Part shown: positions 7,887 to 22,839 of the stretch, piece after piece
Numbering within the stretch: position 1 is the stretch's first letter
Layout of the letters: each line of letters begins with the position of its first letter
Origin: Nitrospirota bacterium
GTDB lineage: Bacteria; Nitrospirota; Thermodesulfovibrionia; Thermodesulfovibrionales; Dissulfurispiraceae
Assembly: GCA_040754455.1 (NCBI GenBank)
Contig: JBFMCP010000034.1
Coordinates: 1 to 34,718, forward strand
Length of the DNA: 34,718 nucleotides
Direction: 5' to 3'
Notes under the pieces: model-generated
Database searches by the model: none
The model's input: only the letters and a program-made list of their open reading frames with translations
What the model was told of the DNA's origin: nothing
Position numbers and translations under genes: made by a program

Positions 7887-8931
7887 AAACGCTCAGGACA
7901 GCACCAGGGTAAAACGTCGCAAGGATTTCCTTGTACCCTTTCCCTGACTGGGCCATCTCGAGGGCAGTCCACTGGCACATGCCCACACCGTGGCCGTATC
8001 CCTTACCCTCGAAAATAACTATGTTCCCGTCCTTGATAAGGTTGGTGATCAGGGTGCTCGGAAGCTTGTCCCATCCCAGGCTCTTCCTGAAATCCTTACC
8101 GAGTAGTTTCTGCTCGCCGGCTTCGGTAATAATGCGTATATCCCTCACACGGTTCGACTCGGTGTAGGAATCGATGACAATGTCCTTGATGCCGCTCACA
8201 TTGATCGCCCGCTCGATCTCGGACAGGGGGATTCTCTTTTCCCACATATAGTAAGGAGAGAGCTCGCAGTTCGTCTCCACGGACTTCAGATAGGGATAGC
8301 TCTTGCCGAAGACTTCAATCGGATCTTCGGTCATGCCGCCACTCGTCGAGTGATAGAAAGCAACAATGGGTTTTCCCTCGTACATGAGCACCTCTCCCCG
8401 TGTAGCGTCCACTGCTTTCGCAACATTTTCGGGAATGGCGCTTCCTTTATAGACCTGATGCAGTACTGACGACGAGAGGTGATAGGGGACCGTGGAGGTG
8501 CCGTTGTTCAGTTTCTGATAGAGCGCATAGGTGCGCGCCACTACCGCCTGTGCCTTGAGCGCCTCCAGGTTCCAGTTGTTCCCCACCTCGGCGGCAACTA
8601 CGCCCTTGATATAATCCTCGAGGGGAAGGTCGTTGATAATATACATTCCCTTTTCACCTTTCCACACTTCGAGATTACCTGAATACTTCAATCCGTTTAC
8701 CGCTACTTCGCCCGTCGTATGACCGAGTTGTTCCACTTTTTCATCCTTCTGCGGCAGGACGGGATTTTTTGCATCGATGAGAAGCACCCGGATATTGGAA
8801 TCAGCAAAAACGGCAGGAGTCAGAACCCAGAATCCAGGAATCAGAAGACAACATAAAAAAGCAAATACAAGAAATATTTCACTCCTCTTTATATTCTGAC
8901 TTCTGACTCCTGACTTCCGGATTCTTTTCAT
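7873..8931 (-). CDS. SpoIID/LytB-domain peptidoglycan hydrolase
   Basis: LEDYIKGVVAAE, EALKAQAVVARTYA, FYHSTSGG, GYGHGVGMCQW; start uncertain. Confidence 0.92.
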   Translation of the reverse strand: MKRIRKSGVRSQNIKRSEIFLVFAFLCCLLIPGFWVLTPAVFADSNIRVLLIDAKNPVLPQKDEKVEQLGHTTGEVAVNGLKYSGNLEVWKGEKGMYIINDLPLEDYIKGVVAAEVGNNWNLEALKAQAVVARTYALYQKLNNGTSTVPYHLSSSVLHQVYKGSAIPENVAKAVDATRGEVLMYEGKPIVAFYHSTSGGMTEDPIEVFGKSYPYLKSVETNCELSPYYMWEKRIPLSEIERAINVSGIKDIVIDSYTESNRVRDIRIITEAGEQKLLGKDFRKSLGWDKLPSTLITNLIKDGNIVIFEGKGYGHGVGMCQWTALEMAQSGKGYKEILATFYPGAVLSVYENR

Positions 8932-9156
8932 TTACCTTCTCCCTATCAGCCAAAAAATAAGTGTCAGAATGATACTGATTATTATGCTTGTTGACAGGGG
9001 AAAATAGAAAGTGAAATTCTTCCTCTGTATAACGATATCGCCGGGCAGCCTGCCGAGCCAGGGGATCCTTCCCGAGAGCATGACCAGCCCGCCGACAACC
9101 AGCAGGATGATGCCGATAATAACCAGAACTTTCCCTATGTGCTGAAACCCATCCAT
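8932..9156 (-). CDS. DUF2905 small membrane protein
   Basis: LGRLPGDI...FYFPLSTSIIIS signature; usual neighbour of ruvB/queA. Confidence 0.9.
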   Translation of the reverse strand: MDGFQHIGKVLVIIGIILLVVGGLVMLSGRIPWLGRLPGDIVIQRKNFTFYFPLSTSIIISIILTLIFWLIGRR

Positions 9157-10927: not shown

Positions 10928-11503
10928 TTACTTTGATTCTTTTGTAAGGTATTTTAAGGATTCCCTGATCAAACTTTCAATGTCGTTCAGACCGCTGCTC
11001 TGCGCCTTGTCAAGGGCAATCTGGGCGATGTTCTTCTTGTACCCGAGATTGACCAGCGCCGAAAGAGCGTCTTCGTAGACAGAACTTTTCGCCTCCTTGA
11101 TCGAAGGGAGTTTTTCCCGCAGTTCGAGGATCAACCGGTGCGCTGTCTTCTTCCCAAGGCCGGGGACTTTGCAGAGGACATCCACATCTTCTGAATTGAT
11201 CGCATTGTAGAACTTGTCAGGTGGAATCGTGGAGAGCAGGTTCAATGCCGTCTTCGGCCCTATCCCGGATATGCCGATCAGGGTCGTAAATATCCGCTTC
11301 TCGTCATCCGTCTGAAAGCCGTAGAGCTGAATGGCGTCTTCACGAACATGGGTATGGATATGGAGAAACACATCGGCATGCTCTTCAGGGAGCGCTGAGA
11401 GGAGCGTCAACGGCACCTGCACACTGTACCCGACCCCGTGGACATCGACAATCACATTGTCGGGCCGTTTCGATATAAGCTTTCCCCGTAACGACGCAAT
11501 CAT
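10928..11503 (-). CDS. ruvA: Holliday junction DNA-binding protein RuvA
   Basis: MIASLRG start at 11503; DVHGVGY, HVREDAIQLYGF, SGIGPKTA, PGLGKKTA, ALVNLGY. Confidence 0.97.
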   Translation of the reverse strand: MIASLRGKLISKRPDNVIVDVHGVGYSVQVPLTLLSALPEEHADVFLHIHTHVREDAIQLYGFQTDDEKRIFTTLIGISGIGPKTALNLLSTIPPDKFYNAINSEDVDVLCKVPGLGKKTAHRLILELREKLPSIKEAKSSVYEDALSALVNLGYKKNIAQIALDKAQSSGLNDIESLIRESLKYLTKESK

Positions 11504-11586
11504 AATTCTCTGTATTTTAGCATGTTTGGAGAGGTAAAAGGGGGATTCGATTGTCACGTCGTTCTACGCATCAAAGCAGGAAGTAC

Positions 11587-11754
11587 GCGTTCGAGGTAAA
11601 GACAGGAACAGGCACTCCAAGAAGCTTTCTCATGCGCATTTATTTGGAGCGGATAAGCCACAGCACTTCATTAAAAGAGCTGTTGTACGAGAATTTTAAT
11701 CCTTTGTGGAAGCTAAGGAAGCGTTATCCGCACCCATTCCTGCCTTCTTCACGC
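11587..11754 (-). repeat. Copy A of an unidentified ~165-nt structured intergenic element
   Basis: Shares GGCACTCCARGAAGCTTTCTCATGCGCATT (29/30 identical) and TTTGTGGRAKCTAAGGARGCG..TCCGCACCCAT with 18390-18557. 14-bp closing stem with three G-U pairs on the minus strand. Confidence 0.8.
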
Positions 11755-11824
11755 AAGTCCTGATTTGATGCGTTTATCCTACTGCCCAAAAGAAATATTG
11801 CGGGAGTGTTTTAGTGTTTCGTCT

Positions 11825-13000
11825 TTATACATATCGCCCCGCAGCATAGCCTGATGCCCACGCCCAGTGTAGGTTGTATCCTCCAAGCTGCCCGGTCACA
11901 TCGATGACCTCGCCTGCGAAAAAGAGGCCCGGAACGTTCTTTGACTCCATCGTTTTGGACGACAGCTCGTTCGTGTCGATCCCTCCGCGGGTCACCTCTG
12001 CGGTGACGTATCCCTCGGTCCCACCCGGTGTGATCTCCCAATGGTGGAGTTTGCGGGCAATATCGTTCAGCGCTTTATCGGTATATTGATGCATCGGCTT
12101 TACCGCCTCCTGCTGAAGAAAAAGCTCGCACCATTTCTCGACGAAGCGTCTTGGAAGATGTCCTGAGAGCACATTATGGAGCTCCGCCCTGCTCCGGCGT
12201 TTTTCTGCAAACAGTTCGTGAGCATCGACATCGGGAAGCGGATTGATCACAATGCGTTCGCCCGGATTCCAGTATAAGGAAATCTGGAGCACGGCAGGTC
12301 CGCTCAGCCCGCGATGGGTAAAAAGGATGTTGCCCCTGAACCTCCTCTTACCGCAGCTGACTTCCGCATCGATGGTAATGCCGCTCAGCTCTTTCAATGC
12401 ATGCAAGTCCTTCTGATGAAACGTGAAGGGGACAAGCGCAGGCTGCAGCGGTGTGATGGCGAGACCGAAGTGGCGGGCCAGGCGGTGGCCGATGTCCGTT
12501 GCGCCGATCTTGGGATATGACAAGCCTCCGGTGGCGATCACCATCGATGCTGACTCCAGCACACCCTGATTCGTCGATACATAAAAATGCCCTCTCTTTT
12601 CCGCTCCTTCTACACGGCAGTGCAGCCGAAAGTCCACACCCGCAGCATCGCACTCCTTCCTGAGCATTTCGATGATCTCTATGGAGCTTCCTTTGCAGAA
12701 CAGCTGGCCGGCTTCCTTTTCGTAGTACGCGATGCCGTGCTTCTCGACCATAGCAATAAAATCCTGCGGTCCAAAACGGGCGAGCGCCGATTTGCAGAAA
12801 TGGGGATTGTGGGATTCATAGTTCTCGTGGCTCACTTTCAGGTTAGTAAAATTGCAGCGCCCGCCGCCGGAGATGCCTATCTTCTTCCCTATCTTTTCGG
12901 CGTGGTCGATGACAAGTACCGAACGGTTCCGCTTCCCCGCCGTGAGCGCACACATCAGGCCTGCTGCACCCGCACCGATAATGATGACATCTTTTTTCAT
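11825..13000 (-). CDS. HI0933/YhiN-family NAD(P)/FAD-dependent flavoprotein
   Basis: IIGAGAAG, GKKIGISGGGRCNFTN, ATGGLSYP, LFTHRGLSGPAVL, VTRGG, GQLGGYNLHWAWASG. Confidence 0.93.
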   Translation of the reverse strand: MKKDVIIIGAGAAGLMCALTAGKRNRSVLVIDHAEKIGKKIGISGGGRCNFTNLKVSHENYESHNPHFCKSALARFGPQDFIAMVEKHGIAYYEKEAGQLFCKGSSIEIIEMLRKECDAAGVDFRLHCRVEGAEKRGHFYVSTNQGVLESASMVIATGGLSYPKIGATDIGHRLARHFGLAITPLQPALVPFTFHQKDLHALKELSGITIDAEVSCGKRRFRGNILFTHRGLSGPAVLQISLYWNPGERIVINPLPDVDAHELFAEKRRSRAELHNVLSGHLPRRFVEKWCELFLQQEAVKPMHQYTDKALNDIARKLHHWEITPGGTEGYVTAEVTRGGIDTNELSSKTMESKNVPGLFFAGEVIDVTGQLGGYNLHWAWASGYAAGRYV

Positions 13001-13155
13001 AGTATATACGTATTATACAGGACATAACCATGTATCTATTATTTTGGAATTCATGGTTACACGAATTTTCCCGCTCTTAAGCCCGATTTCAATCGGATAG
13101 TTCTCTGCTATAATTTTATTATCCGCTATTCATGTCGTGCCCCAAGGAGCCTGCT

Positions 13156-14127
13156 ATGAAAAGAAATGCACTTCTCATTGTTCTTTGCCTGTTGTTCCTG
13201 TCAGGATGCGCCTTTGCCAACGTATCGTTGTTGTCCAAAACCAAGCCGCTCGAGGAAGAGGTGCTCGAGGGAGAAGGCACGCCCAAGATACTGCTTGTCG
13301 ACCTGGACGGCATGATCTCCCTCAAGGAAGATAAAGGCGGCCTGCAGCTCAGGGAGAAGCCCTCGAAGGTCGCTGTGTTCAGAGAAGTGCTTCGCAAAGC
13401 TGAAAAAGACTCAGACATCGTGGGTGTTATCGTGAGGATCAACTCGCCCGGCGGCAGCGTCACGGCAAGCGACCTGATCCATCATGAGATCGTGAGCTTC
13501 AAACAGAAGAGAAAGATACCTGTTTACGCTTACATCATGGAGGTAGGTGCCTCAGGCGGCTACTACATCGCCACCGCCACCGACCGTATCTTTGCAAGTC
13601 CTACCGCAGTTACGGGGAGCATCGGCGTCGTTGCCATGAGGTTCAACGCCGAAGGGCTCTTTTCGAAGATCGGGGTCGCCAATGAAACCTACAAATCAGG
13701 CCCGAAAAAAGACTTCTGGTCGCCTTTCCGTCCGAGCACCCCTGAAGAACAGAAGATGCTCCAGGATATCATCGATCGGCTCTACGCGCGCTTTGTCGGG
13801 GTGGTCGCCGCAAACAGGGAGAAGCTCCTGAGCGAGCAGGAGATCGGGGCCCTTGCCGATGGACGTATACTGACCTCAAGTGAAGCGCTTCGGGCAAAGC
13901 TCATCGACCAAATAGCCTACCTTGATGAGACGGTCGAAGTTATGAAAAAAACGCTTACCATCGACAAGGCCAGAGTAATCACCTATGCACGTCCCGGCGA
14001 TTATAAATCGAACATTTATTCCGGGATGCCGCTGCCCGGCCCGCACACCATAAATCTTATCTCGATCAACGCCGAGGACCTCCCGCCTTTTTCAGGGGTG
14101 CAGTTCATGTATCTCTGGAATCCTTAG
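13156..14127 (+). CDS. sppA: Signal peptide peptidase SppA (S49, short type), probable lipoprotein
   Basis: RINSPGGSV, ASGGYYIA, TGSIGV, KSGPKKD; lipobox LSGC; likely start MKRN at 13156 after AAGGAG. Confidence 0.92.
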   Translation: MKRNALLIVLCLLFLSGCAFANVSLLSKTKPLEEEVLEGEGTPKILLVDLDGMISLKEDKGGLQLREKPSKVAVFREVLRKAEKDSDIVGVIVRINSPGGSVTASDLIHHEIVSFKQKRKIPVYAYIMEVGASGGYYIATATDRIFASPTAVTGSIGVVAMRFNAEGLFSKIGVANETYKSGPKKDFWSPFRPSTPEEQKMLQDIIDRLYARFVGVVAANREKLLSEQEIGALADGRILTSSEALRAKLIDQIAYLDETVEVMKKTLTIDKARVITYARPGDYKSNIYSGMPLPGPHTINLISINAEDLPPFSGVQFMYLWNP

Positions 14128-14194
14128 AAAGCAGGTGAAACCATCCATTTCTATGCACACTGCTACTGATTAAACGAAAATCCGAAAGAGATGG

Positions 14195-14695
14195 CTACCT
14201 CCCCCGCGGGCAATCCTTCAAATCATGATTTCCTTGATATTTATTGCACAGGGATTCGATAAACGCCTGCAGCTCATCTGGTGGCAGCAGCTTGTCGGGT
14301 ACAGCATCCGGCAGCGCACAGGCCTTGACGATTTTTTTCAGAAAATGCACCACAGCGTAATTGATGATCTCTTCAAGAAATGACTCAGGAGCATGTTCTA
14401 TCAGCAGCCGCTCTGAATACCATCCTCCCTTTGTAGGAGCAAACTGTGAGCACTCTCCCTTGAGCGACGTTATCGTGACTCCTTTTGCAAGCGCCATATC
14501 CCGGATCGCCAGGTTCACCAGTTGGAGTCCCCGCAGGGTGGAATTCGAAGCCAGGCCATGCCGCCCTCTGGTAATGGGGAGAAAACGGAACATATCAGCC
14601 CCCGAGCAATAGATATACGCCCCCTTCCCTCTGCTCTCATCGGGCTGGATGACAAAATACATGAATTCGTTGATGTACTCGTAGGTATGCGGCAT
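14195..14695 (-). CDS. Hypothetical protein
   Basis: Protein-like ORF filling the gap; likely start MPHTYEY at 14695 after GGAGGGG; no family recognised. Confidence 0.7.
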   Translation of the reverse strand: MPHTYEYINEFMYFVIQPDESRGKGAYIYCSGADMFRFLPITRGRHGLASNSTLRGLQLVNLAIRDMALAKGVTITSLKGECSQFAPTKGGWYSERLLIEHAPESFLEEIINYAVVHFLKKIVKACALPDAVPDKLLPPDELQAFIESLCNKYQGNHDLKDCPRGR

Positions 14696-15030
14696 ATCGA
14701 TGTCCCCTCCCTGCTTTTGCCTGCCCTGTATCATTATACAAAATATTCCTGACGTTCAGCCGGCCACGACACAACAAAAGGCCTGTTCAGCAACGGACAG
14801 GCTTTCCCCATGGAAAGAATGGATAATCTTAATGTGTTTGTAGCCCTGAGGGTCTCCTCTTTATCTTCTCCATGGCAAGCACCACCGAGGTCGTTTCGAG
14901 CGCATACCGGACAATCTCTCTCCATCATCATCGGAGTTATTATTGGAGTTATCGGTAGTTCCCAGGTGATGACGAGGCAAGTTCCCACAACCTATCTCTT
15001 CACTATCAATAACCCGATTACAGAAAATCG

Positions 15031-16191
15031 CTATGAAGAACTTTTATCCTTCTTGCTCCCTTCGTACAGTTCGTACTCGAGGAGCCTGCATTCTATGCCG
15101 CCGTTGAAAAAGAGCATCTTCCGTTTTGTTCTCAGCCCCACCTTCTTTGCAAGGTCTAGATTCCCGGTGAAAATGTATCCGGTGTATCCCCTGCACTTCT
15201 GTTTGAAGAAATCACCGATCCCCTTGTACACGCCCTCGAGCTGCTTGATCTTTCCCATGCGCTCTCCGTATTCGGGGTTGAGAATGACGATTCCTTCCCC
15301 CTCAGGAACACTTGTCACGGCATAATCGCAGACCGCGAATTCGATCAGATGCTCCACGCCGGCAATAGCGGCATTCTTTCTGGCCGCCTCGACCGCCTCT
15401 CTTCTGATGTCAGTGGCAATGATTCTGTGCTTCAGGGCCTTCTTTGATTCTTTCTTTGCCTGTGCTCGCAGATCGTCCCACACCGATTTTCTAAAACCCT
15501 TCAGGTGCATGAACCCGAAGTTTTCCCTTAGAAGTCCCGGAGCCCTGTTCACCCCCATCAAAGCAGCCTCTATGGCGAGTGTGCCGCTGCCGCACATGGG
15601 ATTTACGAAGTTGCCGTTGCCGCGCCATGTCGTTGCCATAATAACAGCGGCCGCAAGCGTCTCCTGCATGGGCGCGTTCATCGGGATCCTGCGGTACCCG
15701 CGGCGGGAGAGCGGCTCTCCCGAGGTGTCGAAATAGAGGGCGCAGCGCGTACCCTTCCAATAGAGATTGACCACCACATTGGTCTGATCAGGTCCCGAAT
15801 CAGGACGCCGTCCGCGCTGTTCCCTGATCCTGTCCACAATGGCATCCTTGCACTTCACATTAGCATAGCGCGTGTCCCTGATCGTCGGATTGTCTACACG
15901 TGAGGTAATGCAGAGATATTCGTTCTCGTCGATGTAGTCCTCCCAGGAGATCCCTGATGTAACTCGGTAGAGATCATCGGCATCATCGGCGACAAATTCC
16001 TTAATAAGAAAAAGGACCCGGTGCGCAGTGCGAAGATGCAGGTTGAGGCGATAGGTATCCTCAAGTGTTCCCTCAGTCTCGACTCCCGCAACGGTTTCGT
16101 CCAGTACAGGGAAACCCATCTGAGCAAGCTCTTCGACCAGATATGGCGCAACACCTTTTGAGCAGGTAATCAGGATGCGACTTTTTCTCAC
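15031..16191 (-). CDS. THUMP-domain RNA methyltransferase, RlmL-like (UPF0020)
   Basis: NLHLRTAHRV, DTSGEPLSRRGYR, APMQETLAAA, NPMCGSGTLAIEAA, NPEYGERM. Confidence 0.92.
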   Translation of the reverse strand: MRKSRILITCSKGVAPYLVEELAQMGFPVLDETVAGVETEGTLEDTYRLNLHLRTAHRVLFLIKEFVADDADDLYRVTSGISWEDYIDENEYLCITSRVDNPTIRDTRYANVKCKDAIVDRIREQRGRRPDSGPDQTNVVVNLYWKGTRCALYFDTSGEPLSRRGYRRIPMNAPMQETLAAAVIMATTWRGNGNFVNPMCGSGTLAIEAALMGVNRAPGLLRENFGFMHLKGFRKSVWDDLRAQAKKESKKALKHRIIATDIRREAVEAARKNAAIAGVEHLIEFAVCDYAVTSVPEGEGIVILNPEYGERMGKIKQLEGVYKGIGDFFKQKCRGYTGYIFTGNLDLAKKVGLRTKRKMLFFNGGIECRLLEYELYEGSKKDKSSS

Positions 16192-16195
16192 TCTC

Positions 16196-16384
16196 TTATC
16201 TTCTGTCTTTCCGAGCCGAAACAGTGATGATGAAGTTCTCGGGCTTCAGATCAGGGTCCTTCTCGAGCTCCTCGACAAAGACCTCGATCGCCTTTTTCAT
16301 GAAGTTCGCGAATTTCACTCCCTTCGGCAGGGCGAGGATCCTCTGCCGCAGATCTTCGTCGATAGGTGCGGTGTACTTTGCCAT
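16196..16384 (-). CDS. Small hypothetical protein, possibly ribbon-helix-helix
   Basis: SD AAGGAG before ATG; ends 4 nt before the methyltransferase start; short strand followed by two amphipathic helices. Confidence 0.7.
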   Translation of the reverse strand: MAKYTAPIDEDLRQRILALPKGVKFANFMKKAIEVFVEELEKDPDLKPENFIITVSARKDRR

Positions 16385-16630
16385 GTTTACTCCTTAGCTA
16401 TTTGATTTACTCATAAACTGTAACACAAAGTTTATCTGCCGGGGCATAGGACTGCTGTTTTTCTGCAGCGAGCGCCTGGGTTCTCTCGAGTAGGTAGGTA
16501 ACGCCCTGCCTACAGGTCTTCAACTGGAACAATAGCCACTCTTCAGTAGAACCAATGAACTGAGACAAAGGACTATTCGATCGCAAAGAAAAACAGTAGT
16601 TCTATGACCCTTATTTACTTAAATAAATCC

Positions 16631-18331
16631 TCACCTTCTCCGGTACGTACCCGTTACCACCAGTTCCTTCTGCCGCTCCTTCTTTCTCATATCCTTTTCC
16701 ACAAAAAGCTTCTCTCCGGTGAAAGGATCGCGCTCCGTATAGTACATCAGCGTGGACCAAGTGGAAGGCAGGGGCGTAAAAATCTGCACCTGCTCCGGGC
16801 TGATCTTCAGCTCCCGTGCGGAAAAATTCCTGAGCCTCTCCATTGCCCTTTCATCGCTGCCCGGATGCGCCGCAATGAGATAGTACGTCAGGAACTGCTT
16901 TTTGCCGAGCTTGGTATTCAGTGTGTCGAAGGCCTCCTTGAACGCCTGCAAATAATTCTTTCCCGGCTTTCCCATCCTCTTTAGCACCGTTTCTTCGGTA
17001 TGCTCCGGCGCAATCTTGAGCTGCCCCGACACATGATGCTCCACGATATCCTTCAAATACGCCTGCCCGCAGACCGGGTCGTCCAGAATCATATCGTACC
17101 TGATGCCCGACGCGATAAAGACCTTCTTTATCCCCGTGATCTTCCTGATCTGCCTCAGGAGCTCCCGCTGCCGCGTATGGTCTACTTTCAGCTGTTTGCA
17201 GGGCGAGGGATACAGACAGCGTTTGCCGGTGCAGCTCCCCTTTTTCAGCTTCTTAGCGCATTCGACAGCGTACATGTTGGCCGTAGGGCCGCCCACATCC
17301 GTTATGTAACCTTTGAACCCGGGGAGCTTTGTCAGTGCCTCCGCTTCTCTCAGGATCGACGCTGCGCTGCGCGAGCAGATCGTCCTTCCCTGGTGCACGG
17401 CGATAGCGCAGAAATTACACTCCCCGTAACAGCCCCGATGCGTCGTGATGGAGAACTTTATAGTATCCAATGCCCGCACTGCACCCTGCTTCTTGTAGTA
17501 GGGATGCACCTCCCGCTCGAAATACATATCGTGAATTGCATCGAGCTCCTCTGCGGTAGGACAGGTGGCTGGCGGGTTCTGAATGAGATAACGGGTATCC
17601 TGCTGCTGGCAGAGCCCCTTTGCTGTAAGGGGATCATTGTTTATATAGAAAAGCCGGAACATCTCGGTAAACTTCGTTTTGTTCTGTTTTACGTTTTCAT
17701 ACGACGGCAACAGGATATATCCCTCGATCGGCTCCTTCGCGCTGTAACAGATGCCCCGTATGTCCCGCGGGTCCTCCCCATTCGCCAGCTTCCGGGCAAT
17801 TTCGAGCACCGCCTTCTCTCCCATGCCGTAGACCAGGATATCGGCCTTCGCATCAAAGAGCACGGATCTTCGTATCGCATCATCCCAGTAGTCGTAATGG
17901 GCAATCCTCCGCAGGCTTGCCTCGATGCCTCCCAGGACTAATGGTTTGGTATGTTTGAAGTAGCGCCGGACCAGGTTGGCATAGGCGATGGTAGCACGGT
18001 CAGGCCTGCGGGTGTTCTCTCCTCCGGGAGTAAAATCATCGCTGTGCCGCCGCTTTTTCAAAGCGGTGTAGTTCGCCACCATGGAATCCACAGAACCCGC
18101 CGTAATCCCCCAGAAAAGATTCGGCTCACCAAGCCGCGTGATGTCCTGATCGCTTTTCATGTCAGGCTGCGCAATAATCCCCACCTTGTACCCGGCCATC
18201 GCAAGGACATTGCCAATCACCGCAACACCAATGTACGGGCTGTCGATATAGGTATCACCTGTCACCAGGATAATATCCAGGCTCTCCCATCCGCGCTTTC
18301 TCATCTCTTCCCGGGTTGTCGGCAAAAACAT
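16631..18331 (-). CDS. YgiQ-family (UPF0313) radical SAM protein
   Basis: MFLPTTREEM, GGIEASLRRIAHYDYW, HRGCYGECNFCAI (CxxxCxxC), SGQLKIAPEH, QVQIFTPLP. Confidence 0.95.
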   Translation of the reverse strand: MFLPTTREEMRKRGWESLDIILVTGDTYIDSPYIGVAVIGNVLAMAGYKVGIIAQPDMKSDQDITRLGEPNLFWGITAGSVDSMVANYTALKKRRHSDDFTPGGENTRRPDRATIAYANLVRRYFKHTKPLVLGGIEASLRRIAHYDYWDDAIRRSVLFDAKADILVYGMGEKAVLEIARKLANGEDPRDIRGICYSAKEPIEGYILLPSYENVKQNKTKFTEMFRLFYINNDPLTAKGLCQQQDTRYLIQNPPATCPTAEELDAIHDMYFEREVHPYYKKQGAVRALDTIKFSITTHRGCYGECNFCAIAVHQGRTICSRSAASILREAEALTKLPGFKGYITDVGGPTANMYAVECAKKLKKGSCTGKRCLYPSPCKQLKVDHTRQRELLRQIRKITGIKKVFIASGIRYDMILDDPVCGQAYLKDIVEHHVSGQLKIAPEHTEETVLKRMGKPGKNYLQAFKEAFDTLNTKLGKKQFLTYYLIAAHPGSDERAMERLRNFSARELKISPEQVQIFTPLPSTWSTLMYYTERDPFTGEKLFVEKDMRKKERQKELVVTGTYRRR

Positions 18332-18389
18332 ATTATTCTCCTTCTTTATTGTGATGTGCAGAGGAACGATATTGCAAGAAGCAGTTTAC

Positions 18390-18557
18390 GAGAAAAGGCA
18401 GAGATGGGCACTCCAGGAAGCTTTCTCATGCGCATTAATTATATATAGATATGCAACACTTCTCTATCAAATGAAGCTGGCATCGGAGTTTGATTTGTTT
18501 GTGGGATCTAAGGAGGCGCGATTAAGCTCCTTTCCGCACCCATCTCTGCCTTTTCTC
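18390..18557 (-). repeat. Copy B of the unidentified ~165-nt structured intergenic element
   Basis: Perfect 19-bp terminal inverted repeat GAGAAAAGGCAGAGATGGG (18390-18408) / CCCATCTCTGCCTTTTCTC (18539-18557); conserved blocks shared with 11587-11754. Confidence 0.8.
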
Positions 18558-21443: not shown

Positions 21444-21538
21444 CTGCCACCTCAGCAACCCCTCGATCCTGTGGTTAGCAGGATAGGTGGCTTTGTGCCA
21501 TACGGTTACCCGTATTTTACCTTGGTTTGGGGTGGCAG
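21444..21538 (-). ncRNA. c-di-GMP-I (GEMM) riboswitch aptamer, copy 1
   Basis: Minus strand P1 CUGCCACC/GGUGGCAG; GGUAAA-AUACGG-GUAA(GNRA)-CCGUAU-GGCACAAAGCC; P3 hairpin AUCCUG/CAGGAU; GGGGUUGCUGA. Matches the GEMM layout, with G at the position equivalent to Vc2 G20. Confidence 0.85.
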
Positions 21539-22746: not shown

Positions 22747-22839
22747 CTGTCACCTCAGCAACCCCTCCTTCCAACTTTCATTGGAAAGGTAGCTTTGTGC
22801 CATACGGTTACCCGTATTTTACCTTTTATGGGGTGACAG
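22747..22839 (-). ncRNA. c-di-GMP-I (GEMM) riboswitch aptamer, copy 2
   Basis: P1 CUGUCACC/GGUGACAG (compensatory change versus copy 1); identical 34-nt P2 core; P3 hairpin UUCCAAU-GAAA-GUUGGAA; GGGGUUGCUGA. Confidence 0.87.

Follow-up and report, generated by a model that had tools for sequence, protein, structure and literature searches.

The locus examined here raises the question of whether an imperfect hairpin found upstream of both ruvA and a ygiQ-family radical SAM gene in a Nitrospirota genome is a cis-regulatory RNA or a piece of mobile DNA. The window (the whole stretch of DNA analysed, 34,718 nt) contains two copies of it (Table 1). Much of what the initial annotation reported about them was reproduced: the copies are related (68% identity across 161 nt, blastn E=1e-8), the closing stem of copy B is perfect over 19 bp, with 18390-18408 pairing with 18539-18557, the 14-bp stem of copy A includes three G-U pairs on the minus strand, and a minus-strand start codon lies 59-95 nt past the end of each copy (~60-85 nt in the annotation). 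The folding z-score of copy A is -3.3 on the minus strand versus -1.8 on the plus strand. Neither copy overlaps an Rfam match at E<=5, in keeping with the annotation, which could match the element to no known riboswitch, ribozyme, 6S, SRP or tmRNA. Other claims had to be revised. The limits proposed for copy A were too narrow, as outer inverted arms reach beyond them on both sides, and the blocks described as highly conserved and largely unpaired are mostly paired, corresponding across the family to helices 2 and 3 of a closing stem of about 34 bp. Their pairing was overlooked because copy A is missing 12 nt from the 5' strand of helix 2 in the alignment.

Table 1. Coordinates of the element copies, their outer arms and the adjoining host genes in the window.
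Feature	Coordinates	Strand	Evidence
Copy A, hairpin core	11598..11747	-	Family-profile nhmmer E=5e-35; alignment; weak with a foreign-only model (15.8 bits)
Copy A, 5'-side outer arm, decayed ISAs1-type terminal repeat	11753..11780	-	Arm profile E=9e-8, self-seeded
Copy A, 3'-side outer arm, inverted relative to the 5' arm, terminus lost	11566..11590	-	Arm profile E=6e-5; flank alignment
Copy B, hairpin core whose 19-bp outer stem is perfect	18390..18557	-	50.1 bits, E=5e-9, model from other genomes only
ruvA, host gene outside the element	10928..11503	-	TIGR00084 above cut-off
ygiQ-family radical SAM gene, host gene outside the element	16631..18331	-	TIGR03904 above cut-off

The element is not confined to two copies, since a profile nhmmer search of the same genome recovered 28 near-full and 13 partial copies, 28 being a lower bound for the family. 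The near-full copies are gene-less, dispersed and all located between called genes, and their neighbours are functionally unrelated. Judged by their mean identity of 73%, these copies are old. Relative to the neighbouring genes, 14 are antisense, 9 sense, 4 divergent and 1 convergent. At three loci picked for conserved flanks, the orthologous intergenic sites in a genome of the same genus (G001) were all empty, with gaps of 61, 7 and 68 nt versus 298, 197 and 315 nt. Copies in both orientations together with empty orthologous sites support the non-autonomous mobile element that had been listed among the candidates, and this was the combination by which the initial annotation proposed to recognise a MITE. 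The G001 orthologues of ruvA and ygiQ both lack the upstream element as well; these two sites are unclean empty-site tests, because the genes further upstream differ. In sequencing runs, copy A is also present in related strains, and in one diverged relative 239 nt that do not align lie where the 214 nt of copy B would be. Searches for target-site duplications around the 28 copies gave two weak candidates, neither convincing, and words shared between flanks showed no excess.

Homologous cores were identified in 16 other Nitrospirota genomes. They were reached by covariance models only, as blastn with copy B gave no match in 30 relatives. The homology is not circular, because a model built without any sequence from the genome under study (R2) recovers its copies in the same polarity, 13 of them in a genome-wide search. 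An exact pattern of the type seen in genome G068 occurs in 11 Nitrospirota records; the other exact-pattern scans of genome, metagenome and viral contigs returned no matches, and plasmids and phages gave none either. Models run over about 60 autonomous IS loci found no core inside any of them. No published description of the element was found in the literature searched, and a 2026 preprint that mined genomes for non-coding elements mentions neither Nitrospirota nor MITEs in its main text.

Young relatives of the core lie within miniature transposons that have terminal repeats and are flanked by target duplications of 5-8 bp. In G026, exact duplications of 5-8 bp flank 18 of the 29 elements with both ends located; among the full-core copies the figure is 4/7, with two more matching at 5 of 6 positions. 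Exact 6-bp duplications were found in 3/10 cases in G297. Over 17 bases, the ends in both genomes show 1-3 differences to the right end of an IS1380 element in G093, which itself shows no duplication. IS1380-family members ISArsp10, whose repeat begins CC (PMC6305408), and IS1247 (PMC3281130 Table 2) are listed with 5-bp duplications, and other readable IS1380 elements mostly have 4-5 bp, whereas those in G026 are mostly 6 bp; moreover, the IS1380-type shell was not found on copies in the genome under study. A generic end-plus-duplication script missed copies in G026, where an indel between the two ends is the probable reason, and its counts for foreign genomes are thus not a fair rate. The shell in G440 has perfect ends starting with GTAA, and 8-bp duplications in two of three copies. 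It is a candidate IS66-type shell, GTAA ends being expected of that family. A duplication of 8 bp is given for IS66 (PMC3281130 Table 2).

Some copies in the genome under study point to yet another shell. Their outer arms begin CAGGG and correspond to the first 14 bases of an end that, in G138, follows fragments of an ISAs1 transposase at a distance of about 108 bp. MITEs in G010 and G324 are bounded by this end too, with 9-10 bp duplications in 6/21, which resembles the ISAs1-family element ISArsp11 with its CAGGG repeat start and 10-bp duplication (PMC6305408 Table 3). With a matrix built from foreign ISAs1-type ends only, the 5'-side arm of copy A scores 11.1 versus a control 99th percentile of 0.9, while its 3'-side arm falls below the threshold for the terminal motif; ISAs1-type end scoring recognised no shell end at copy B. 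Such ends exceed the control beside five of the 28 full copies (three clearly) and three of the 13 partial matches, and decayed ones were noted at copy A and five other loci. As they are detectable on a minority, most copies are naked. Unlike the ISAs1 family, the assembly shows no readable duplication; neither an ISAs1 nor an IS1380 transposase was found in it, although it is a draft of 92 contigs from which repeats may be absent. The same shell types hold REP-like cargo, other cargo or none elsewhere, and cargo and shell are therefore separable.

Taken together, the element is probably a gene-less imperfect hairpin of about 160 bp, present in at least 28 copies, that was dispersed as a passenger, forming the core of MITEs on which DDE transposases acted in trans, and it is likely to be hitch-hiking mobile DNA instead of a riboswitch. 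Against this reading count, for the genome under study, the lack of a convincing duplication, of shell ends on most copies and of a matching transposase, and also the IS loci without a core and the 6-bp length of most G026 duplications. The best reading is that the conserved core rides MITE shells and that the shell family has changed, presumably through nested insertion into new shells and subsequent loss of the inner ends. In the genome under study the shells would have mostly decayed and been outlasted by the long stem, which template-switch repair between the arms may have helped to persist. Any core lying within a read-through host mRNA is predicted to form a duplex of 35-45 bp that could alter its stability or processing.

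As a MITE family this would be ordinary. MITEs are usually regarded as having arisen by deletion from one parent IS. In the present case a single homologous structured core occurs in the ends of different IS families, and those ends bear other cargo elsewhere, so that shell and core have separate histories. Bacterial MITEs such as Correia/NEMIS, QMITE2 of Coxiella and Chunjie of Geobacter uraniireducens are similarly small, gene-less, intergenic and numerous; their young copies show terminal repeats and target duplications, which fade as copies age, transcripts of them would form stable stem-loops, and truncated derivatives exist (PMC10969869). The present element differs in that its core is shared among ends of several IS families and that the copies in the genome under study have mostly lost their ends. 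By description instead of sequence, the element also resembles bcr1 of the Bacillus cereus group, which is about 155 bp long with non-conserved positions and compensatory changes that keep a large fold; bcr1 differs in having 5-bp direct repeats and is known to be transcribed (PMC3184786), any transcription of the present element being putative.

The fold itself is conserved. The core consists of a helix, purine mismatches, a second helix, a 3-nt bulge, a third helix and a conserved unpaired ACC. Covariation exceeds that of shuffles, with 25/32 covarying pairs across genomes and 12/38 within the genome under study, and the earlier proposal of a conserved structure not listed in Rfam holds; over 12 loci with members from this and other genomes, Rfam gave a single sub-threshold match to a plant miRNA hairpin. 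The covariation of the stem is real, though it may be owed in part to template switching. In two copies of the genome under study the conserved 3x3 internal loop has turned into perfect pairs, and one of these is the 5' arm folded back on itself, an outcome predicted by template switching (PMC5941160). Of 26 copies, 18 have the better fold on the strand read in the initial annotation; the annotation's wobble argument for one RNA strand fails family-wide, as non-consensus G-T and A-C pairs number 31 versus 24 (p=0.42). Unpaired bases are among the positions invariant across genomes (19 sequences, 50% mean column identity). Between co-directional genes, antisense and sense copies number 14 versus 9 in this genome and 30 versus 8 in the others, the latter bias having p=5e-4 by a crude ORF method applied to copies that are not independent. 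Passive hitch-hiking leaves the invariant unpaired bases and the orientation bias unexplained.

It is possible, although unlikely, that the core moves independently, as a hairpin of the REP/REPIN or attC type that a putative enzyme recognises by its structure and inserts into intergenic DNA and MITE shells. Its occurrence in shells that are assigned to two IS families or have ends of a third type, the REP-like cargo or emptiness of such shells elsewhere, the lack of a shell on most copies in the genome under study, the invariant unpaired positions, the polarity against host transcription and the placement of the core strand opposite the G-rich strand in 19/28 copies would all fit. However, no enzyme gene adjoins the core in loci with listed ORFs, wobble shows no strand bias, and the youngest copies examined (G026, G297 and G440) carry shell ends, many with target duplications. 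The sole Y1 transposase of the genome has a different flanking hairpin, and its locus has no core match. REP/REPIN sequences associated with RAYTs are likewise palindromes that pair imperfectly, with mismatches that are conserved, and they too occur nested among other mobile DNA (PMC3184786). The core is much longer than their 20-65 bp and lies between convergent genes in 1/28 cases only; the GTAG tag was not seen in core alignments, and no flanked RAYT gene was found. A doubtful extension makes the core a self-standing module of Nitrospirota and a parasite of parasites: the putative enzyme would read its bulged helix together with the unpaired bases that are invariant, and carry it among MITEs of unrelated IS families, and heptamer-repeat cassettes would use this site as their landing pad as well. 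A core with an enzyme of its own, or one that aids the spread of shells, would offer a testable handle on how repeats lacking genes move, among them the heptamer cassettes found in these genomes.

Less probable still is a small RNA made from the core's own strand and either copied around by reverse transcription or retained because it works as an RNA. The covariation and the better fold of the strand first read could be cited for it, as could several G068 copies consisting of the 3' part alone and a repeat in the genome under study that presumably resembles a group II intron end. Nevertheless, copies with the 5' part alone and copies with internal deletions exist, G-T pairs do not predominate significantly over A-C pairs, members from this and other genomes have no Rfam match, and terminal repeats with short duplications matching DDE transposons account for the young copies without RNA. 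Resemblances of the core to retrons, 6S, attC and bridge RNA are presumed ones, with comparison made through Rfam only.

A riboswitch role is unlikely, and a riboswitch or other cis-regulatory leader for ruvA, ygiQ and other downstream genes is very improbable: a same-strand start codon does follow both window copies, yet 15 of the 28 copies have no same-strand gene downstream (13 have one), the neighbours are unrelated and the strand is usually antisense, neither copy has a terminator-like site, and the element-free G001 orthologues of ruvA and ygiQ share promoter-like hexamers (by eye) with the DNA between element and gene. In practice, the preferred reading of a core carried by MITEs serves as a warning: a hairpin that lies upstream of genes may covary strongly, have no Rfam match and still be mobile DNA.

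Two further origins were considered for the shell and core. IS1634, guessed as a partner from the 5-6 bp duplications, had matching ends in 0/30 loci. Derivation of the core from an IS1380 left-end leader, suggested by eye, was supported by neither model, and the one core match close to an IS1634 (L186) seems to have been inserted separately. The promoter-like site of ruvA was not called by a consensus scan. A promoter-like site within copy B (18466-18438, minus) could place the 3' part of copy B in the ygiQ leader, which would speak for a leader role.

The two stretches, upstream of ruvA (copy A) and of a ygiQ-family radical SAM gene (copy B), are homologous as the initial annotation claimed, with 68% identity over 161 nt (E=1e-8) and the described stems present in both. 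The claim of an unrecognised element also agrees with an Rfam scan of the window, in which no family covered either copy and two c-di-GMP-I riboswitch matches were obtained elsewhere (see the table). These matches bracket two small genes, the second match lying downstream of both genes and not before a same-strand start.

c-di-GMP-I type riboswitch matches in the window
Feature	Position	Strand	Score
c-di-GMP-I type riboswitch match	22754-22833	minus	60 bits, above cut-off
c-di-GMP-I type riboswitch match	21450-21530	minus	58.9 bits, below UAU-variant cut-off

The element is a dispersed repeat, with 28 near-full and 13 partial matches identified by an iterated profile search of the 3.27-Mb host assembly, an additional diverged copy at C1:139384 from a later search, and a mean pairwise identity of 73% (range 63-93%) among 26 aligned copies. 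Some partial copies have internal deletions and retain the closing stem, and one is a fold-back of the 5' arm. Another copy (C9:50600-50809) is split by a hairpin repeat, short and GC-rich, similar to one beside the sole Y1 (IS200-like) transposase, at C46:14982-15281. Several other small repeat families are present in this genome, including an intergenic short-period inverted repeat array at 8787-8944 of the window. Immediately upstream of one core copy (L007, C22:12249-12390) lies a 130-200 bp repeat, found at seven other places at 96-98% identity, which resembles a group II intron 3' end.

In the same-genus genome G001, the element is absent at all three tested loci, which were picked for conserved flanks and have intergenic gaps of 61, 7 and 68 nt versus 298, 197 and 315 nt in the host; two of these gene pairs, recognised from translations, are presumably dxs-tlyA and TRAM-ispD. 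The G001 orthologues of ruvA and ygiQ also lack the element, these sites being weaker tests because their upstream genes differ in G001.

No homologue was found by blastn among 30 relatives. Of 150 other genomes in the class, 8 had matches to a covariance model of the core, R1, and additional weak matches came from G001 and G297. A second model, R2, based on 15 copies that were all foreign, retrieved the host copies in unchanged polarity (copy B at 50 bits, copy A at just 16) and had matches in 9 of 150 other genomes of the phylum, plus one locus in G282. Core homologues were thus identified in a total of 16 other genomes, with copy numbers that are lower bounds because just 17-18 candidates per genome were scored. 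The sequence records with a related element carry the label Nitrospirota or Nitrospirae. Copies in three genomes (L044 in G151, L045 in G068 and L043 in G045) are 87-95% identical across two families, which suggests recent horizontal spread; the G151 copy is located within what appears to us to be an arsenic-resistance cluster.

The family fold is a closing stem of ~34 bp around a variable AT-rich interior. In this stem, a 17-bp helix is separated by a 3x3 purine loop from one of 12-13 bp, which is followed by a short 3' bulge and then by a helix of 4 bp (helix 3). Two-sided changes occur at 12 of 38 pairs within the host genome, more than in shuffles, and at 25 of 32 pairs across genomes, in an alignment where helix 3 is just 68% paired. 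In two host copies the three-base loop is now perfectly complementary. Template switching between hairpin arms is a route to such pairing described in PMC5941160, so covariation alone is no proof of an RNA. The purine loop, together with two wobbles in the consensus, sets the polarity; the initial annotation's one-strand wobble argument fails across the family, as the other departures from pairing (31 G-T vs 24 A-C, p=0.42) give no evidence for selection on one strand. Among 19 sequences, four positions are invariant, some of them unpaired and located just after helix 3.

In several relatives, and at some host copies, the core lies within miniature-transposon ends, or shells, two types of which match transposon families. 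The young family in G026 has 79 end-motif matches and seven near-identical full-core copies with sharp ends; the target duplications are exact (5-6 bp) at four of these and match at 5 of 6 bases at another two. Exact duplications of 5-8 bp flank 18 of the 29 G026 elements in which both ends were located, and in many of these 29 the interior has been replaced. In G297 the core is enclosed by a shell of this kind (exact duplications in 3 of 10). Compared with the right end of an IS1380 element in G093 (243 bits, cut-off 180), the CC...GG ends of both genomes show 1-3 base differences; none of the other 29 IS1380 loci has ends like these. An IS1380 example in Table 3 of PMC6305408 has the same kind of start and a 5-bp duplication. 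At G026 loci L115-L144 and L195-L214, heptamer-repeat arrays, of which there are at least three word types, often take the place of the core interior. Each array begins no more than a few bases from the conserved unpaired motif that follows helix 3, and this motif may be a preferred landing site. Elsewhere, IS1380-type shells are nearly empty (G008, G145) or carry cargo that we regard as REP-like (G071). The IS1380 left end at L374 (G093:C60:50-175) folds into a stem that, on read-through transcription, is predicted to mask the ribosome-binding site of the transposase gene. By eye this left end resembles the core, but neither R1 nor R2 matches it.

The outer arm in the host genome is unlike IS1380-type ends. 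It starts with CAGGG and is identical, over 14 bases, to the beginning of ends that lie ~108 bp behind ISAs1 transposase fragments in G138. The same type of end bounds MITEs with presumably REP-like cargo in G010 and G324 (9-10 bp duplications in 6 of 21). A foreign-end matrix scored above control beside 5 of 28 full and 3 of 13 partial host copies, and ISAs1-type ends are clear at three full ones (copy A, C1:245304 and C9:84558). An ISAs1 example in the same Table 3 of PMC6305408 has this kind of start and a 10-bp duplication. A second common 3' flank, unlike the ISAs1-type arm, occurs beside the host copies at C3:119471, C4:24792, C33:4894 and a few more and is possibly a remnant of another shell. 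G440 has a third shell, whose ends are perfect and start with GTAA and which has 8-bp duplications in two of three copies; our guess is IS66.

The dispersal, the empty G001 sites and the shells with duplications in relatives support the non-autonomous mobile element among the options initially offered, and on present evidence the core family behaves like a MITE rather than a riboswitch. It is likely that shell and core were moved together by transposases acting in trans, that the core changed shell family via nesting with subsequent loss of inner ends, and that the host shells decayed after the spread; nesting of elements is rife in these genomes. Independent mobility of the core is unlikely, and is kept alive by several points against the shell mechanism: no convincing target duplications at host copies and no cognate transposase in the host assembly were found, many host copies are naked, the core was not found in ~60 autonomous IS loci, some invariant bases are unpaired, and orientation is biased. 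By our own gene calls, the 28 host copies comprise 14 antisense and 9 sense between co-directional genes, 4 divergent and 1 convergent. Those of 74 foreign copies between co-directional genes are antisense in 30 and sense in 8 cases by a longest-ORF method giving 12 vs 8 for host copies, the copies being non-independent. The repeat family is real and, with no published description found in the literature, apparently undescribed; it stands apart from ordinary MITEs in that its core and shell have had different histories.

By likeness to Correia and ERIC elements, as treated in PMC10969869, the element may affect host mRNA. Promoter-like hexamers common to the host and G001 were seen by eye between element and start codon, the one at ruvA not being called by a consensus promoter scan. 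The same scan placed a candidate site within copy B, which could therefore contribute to the ygiQ leader.
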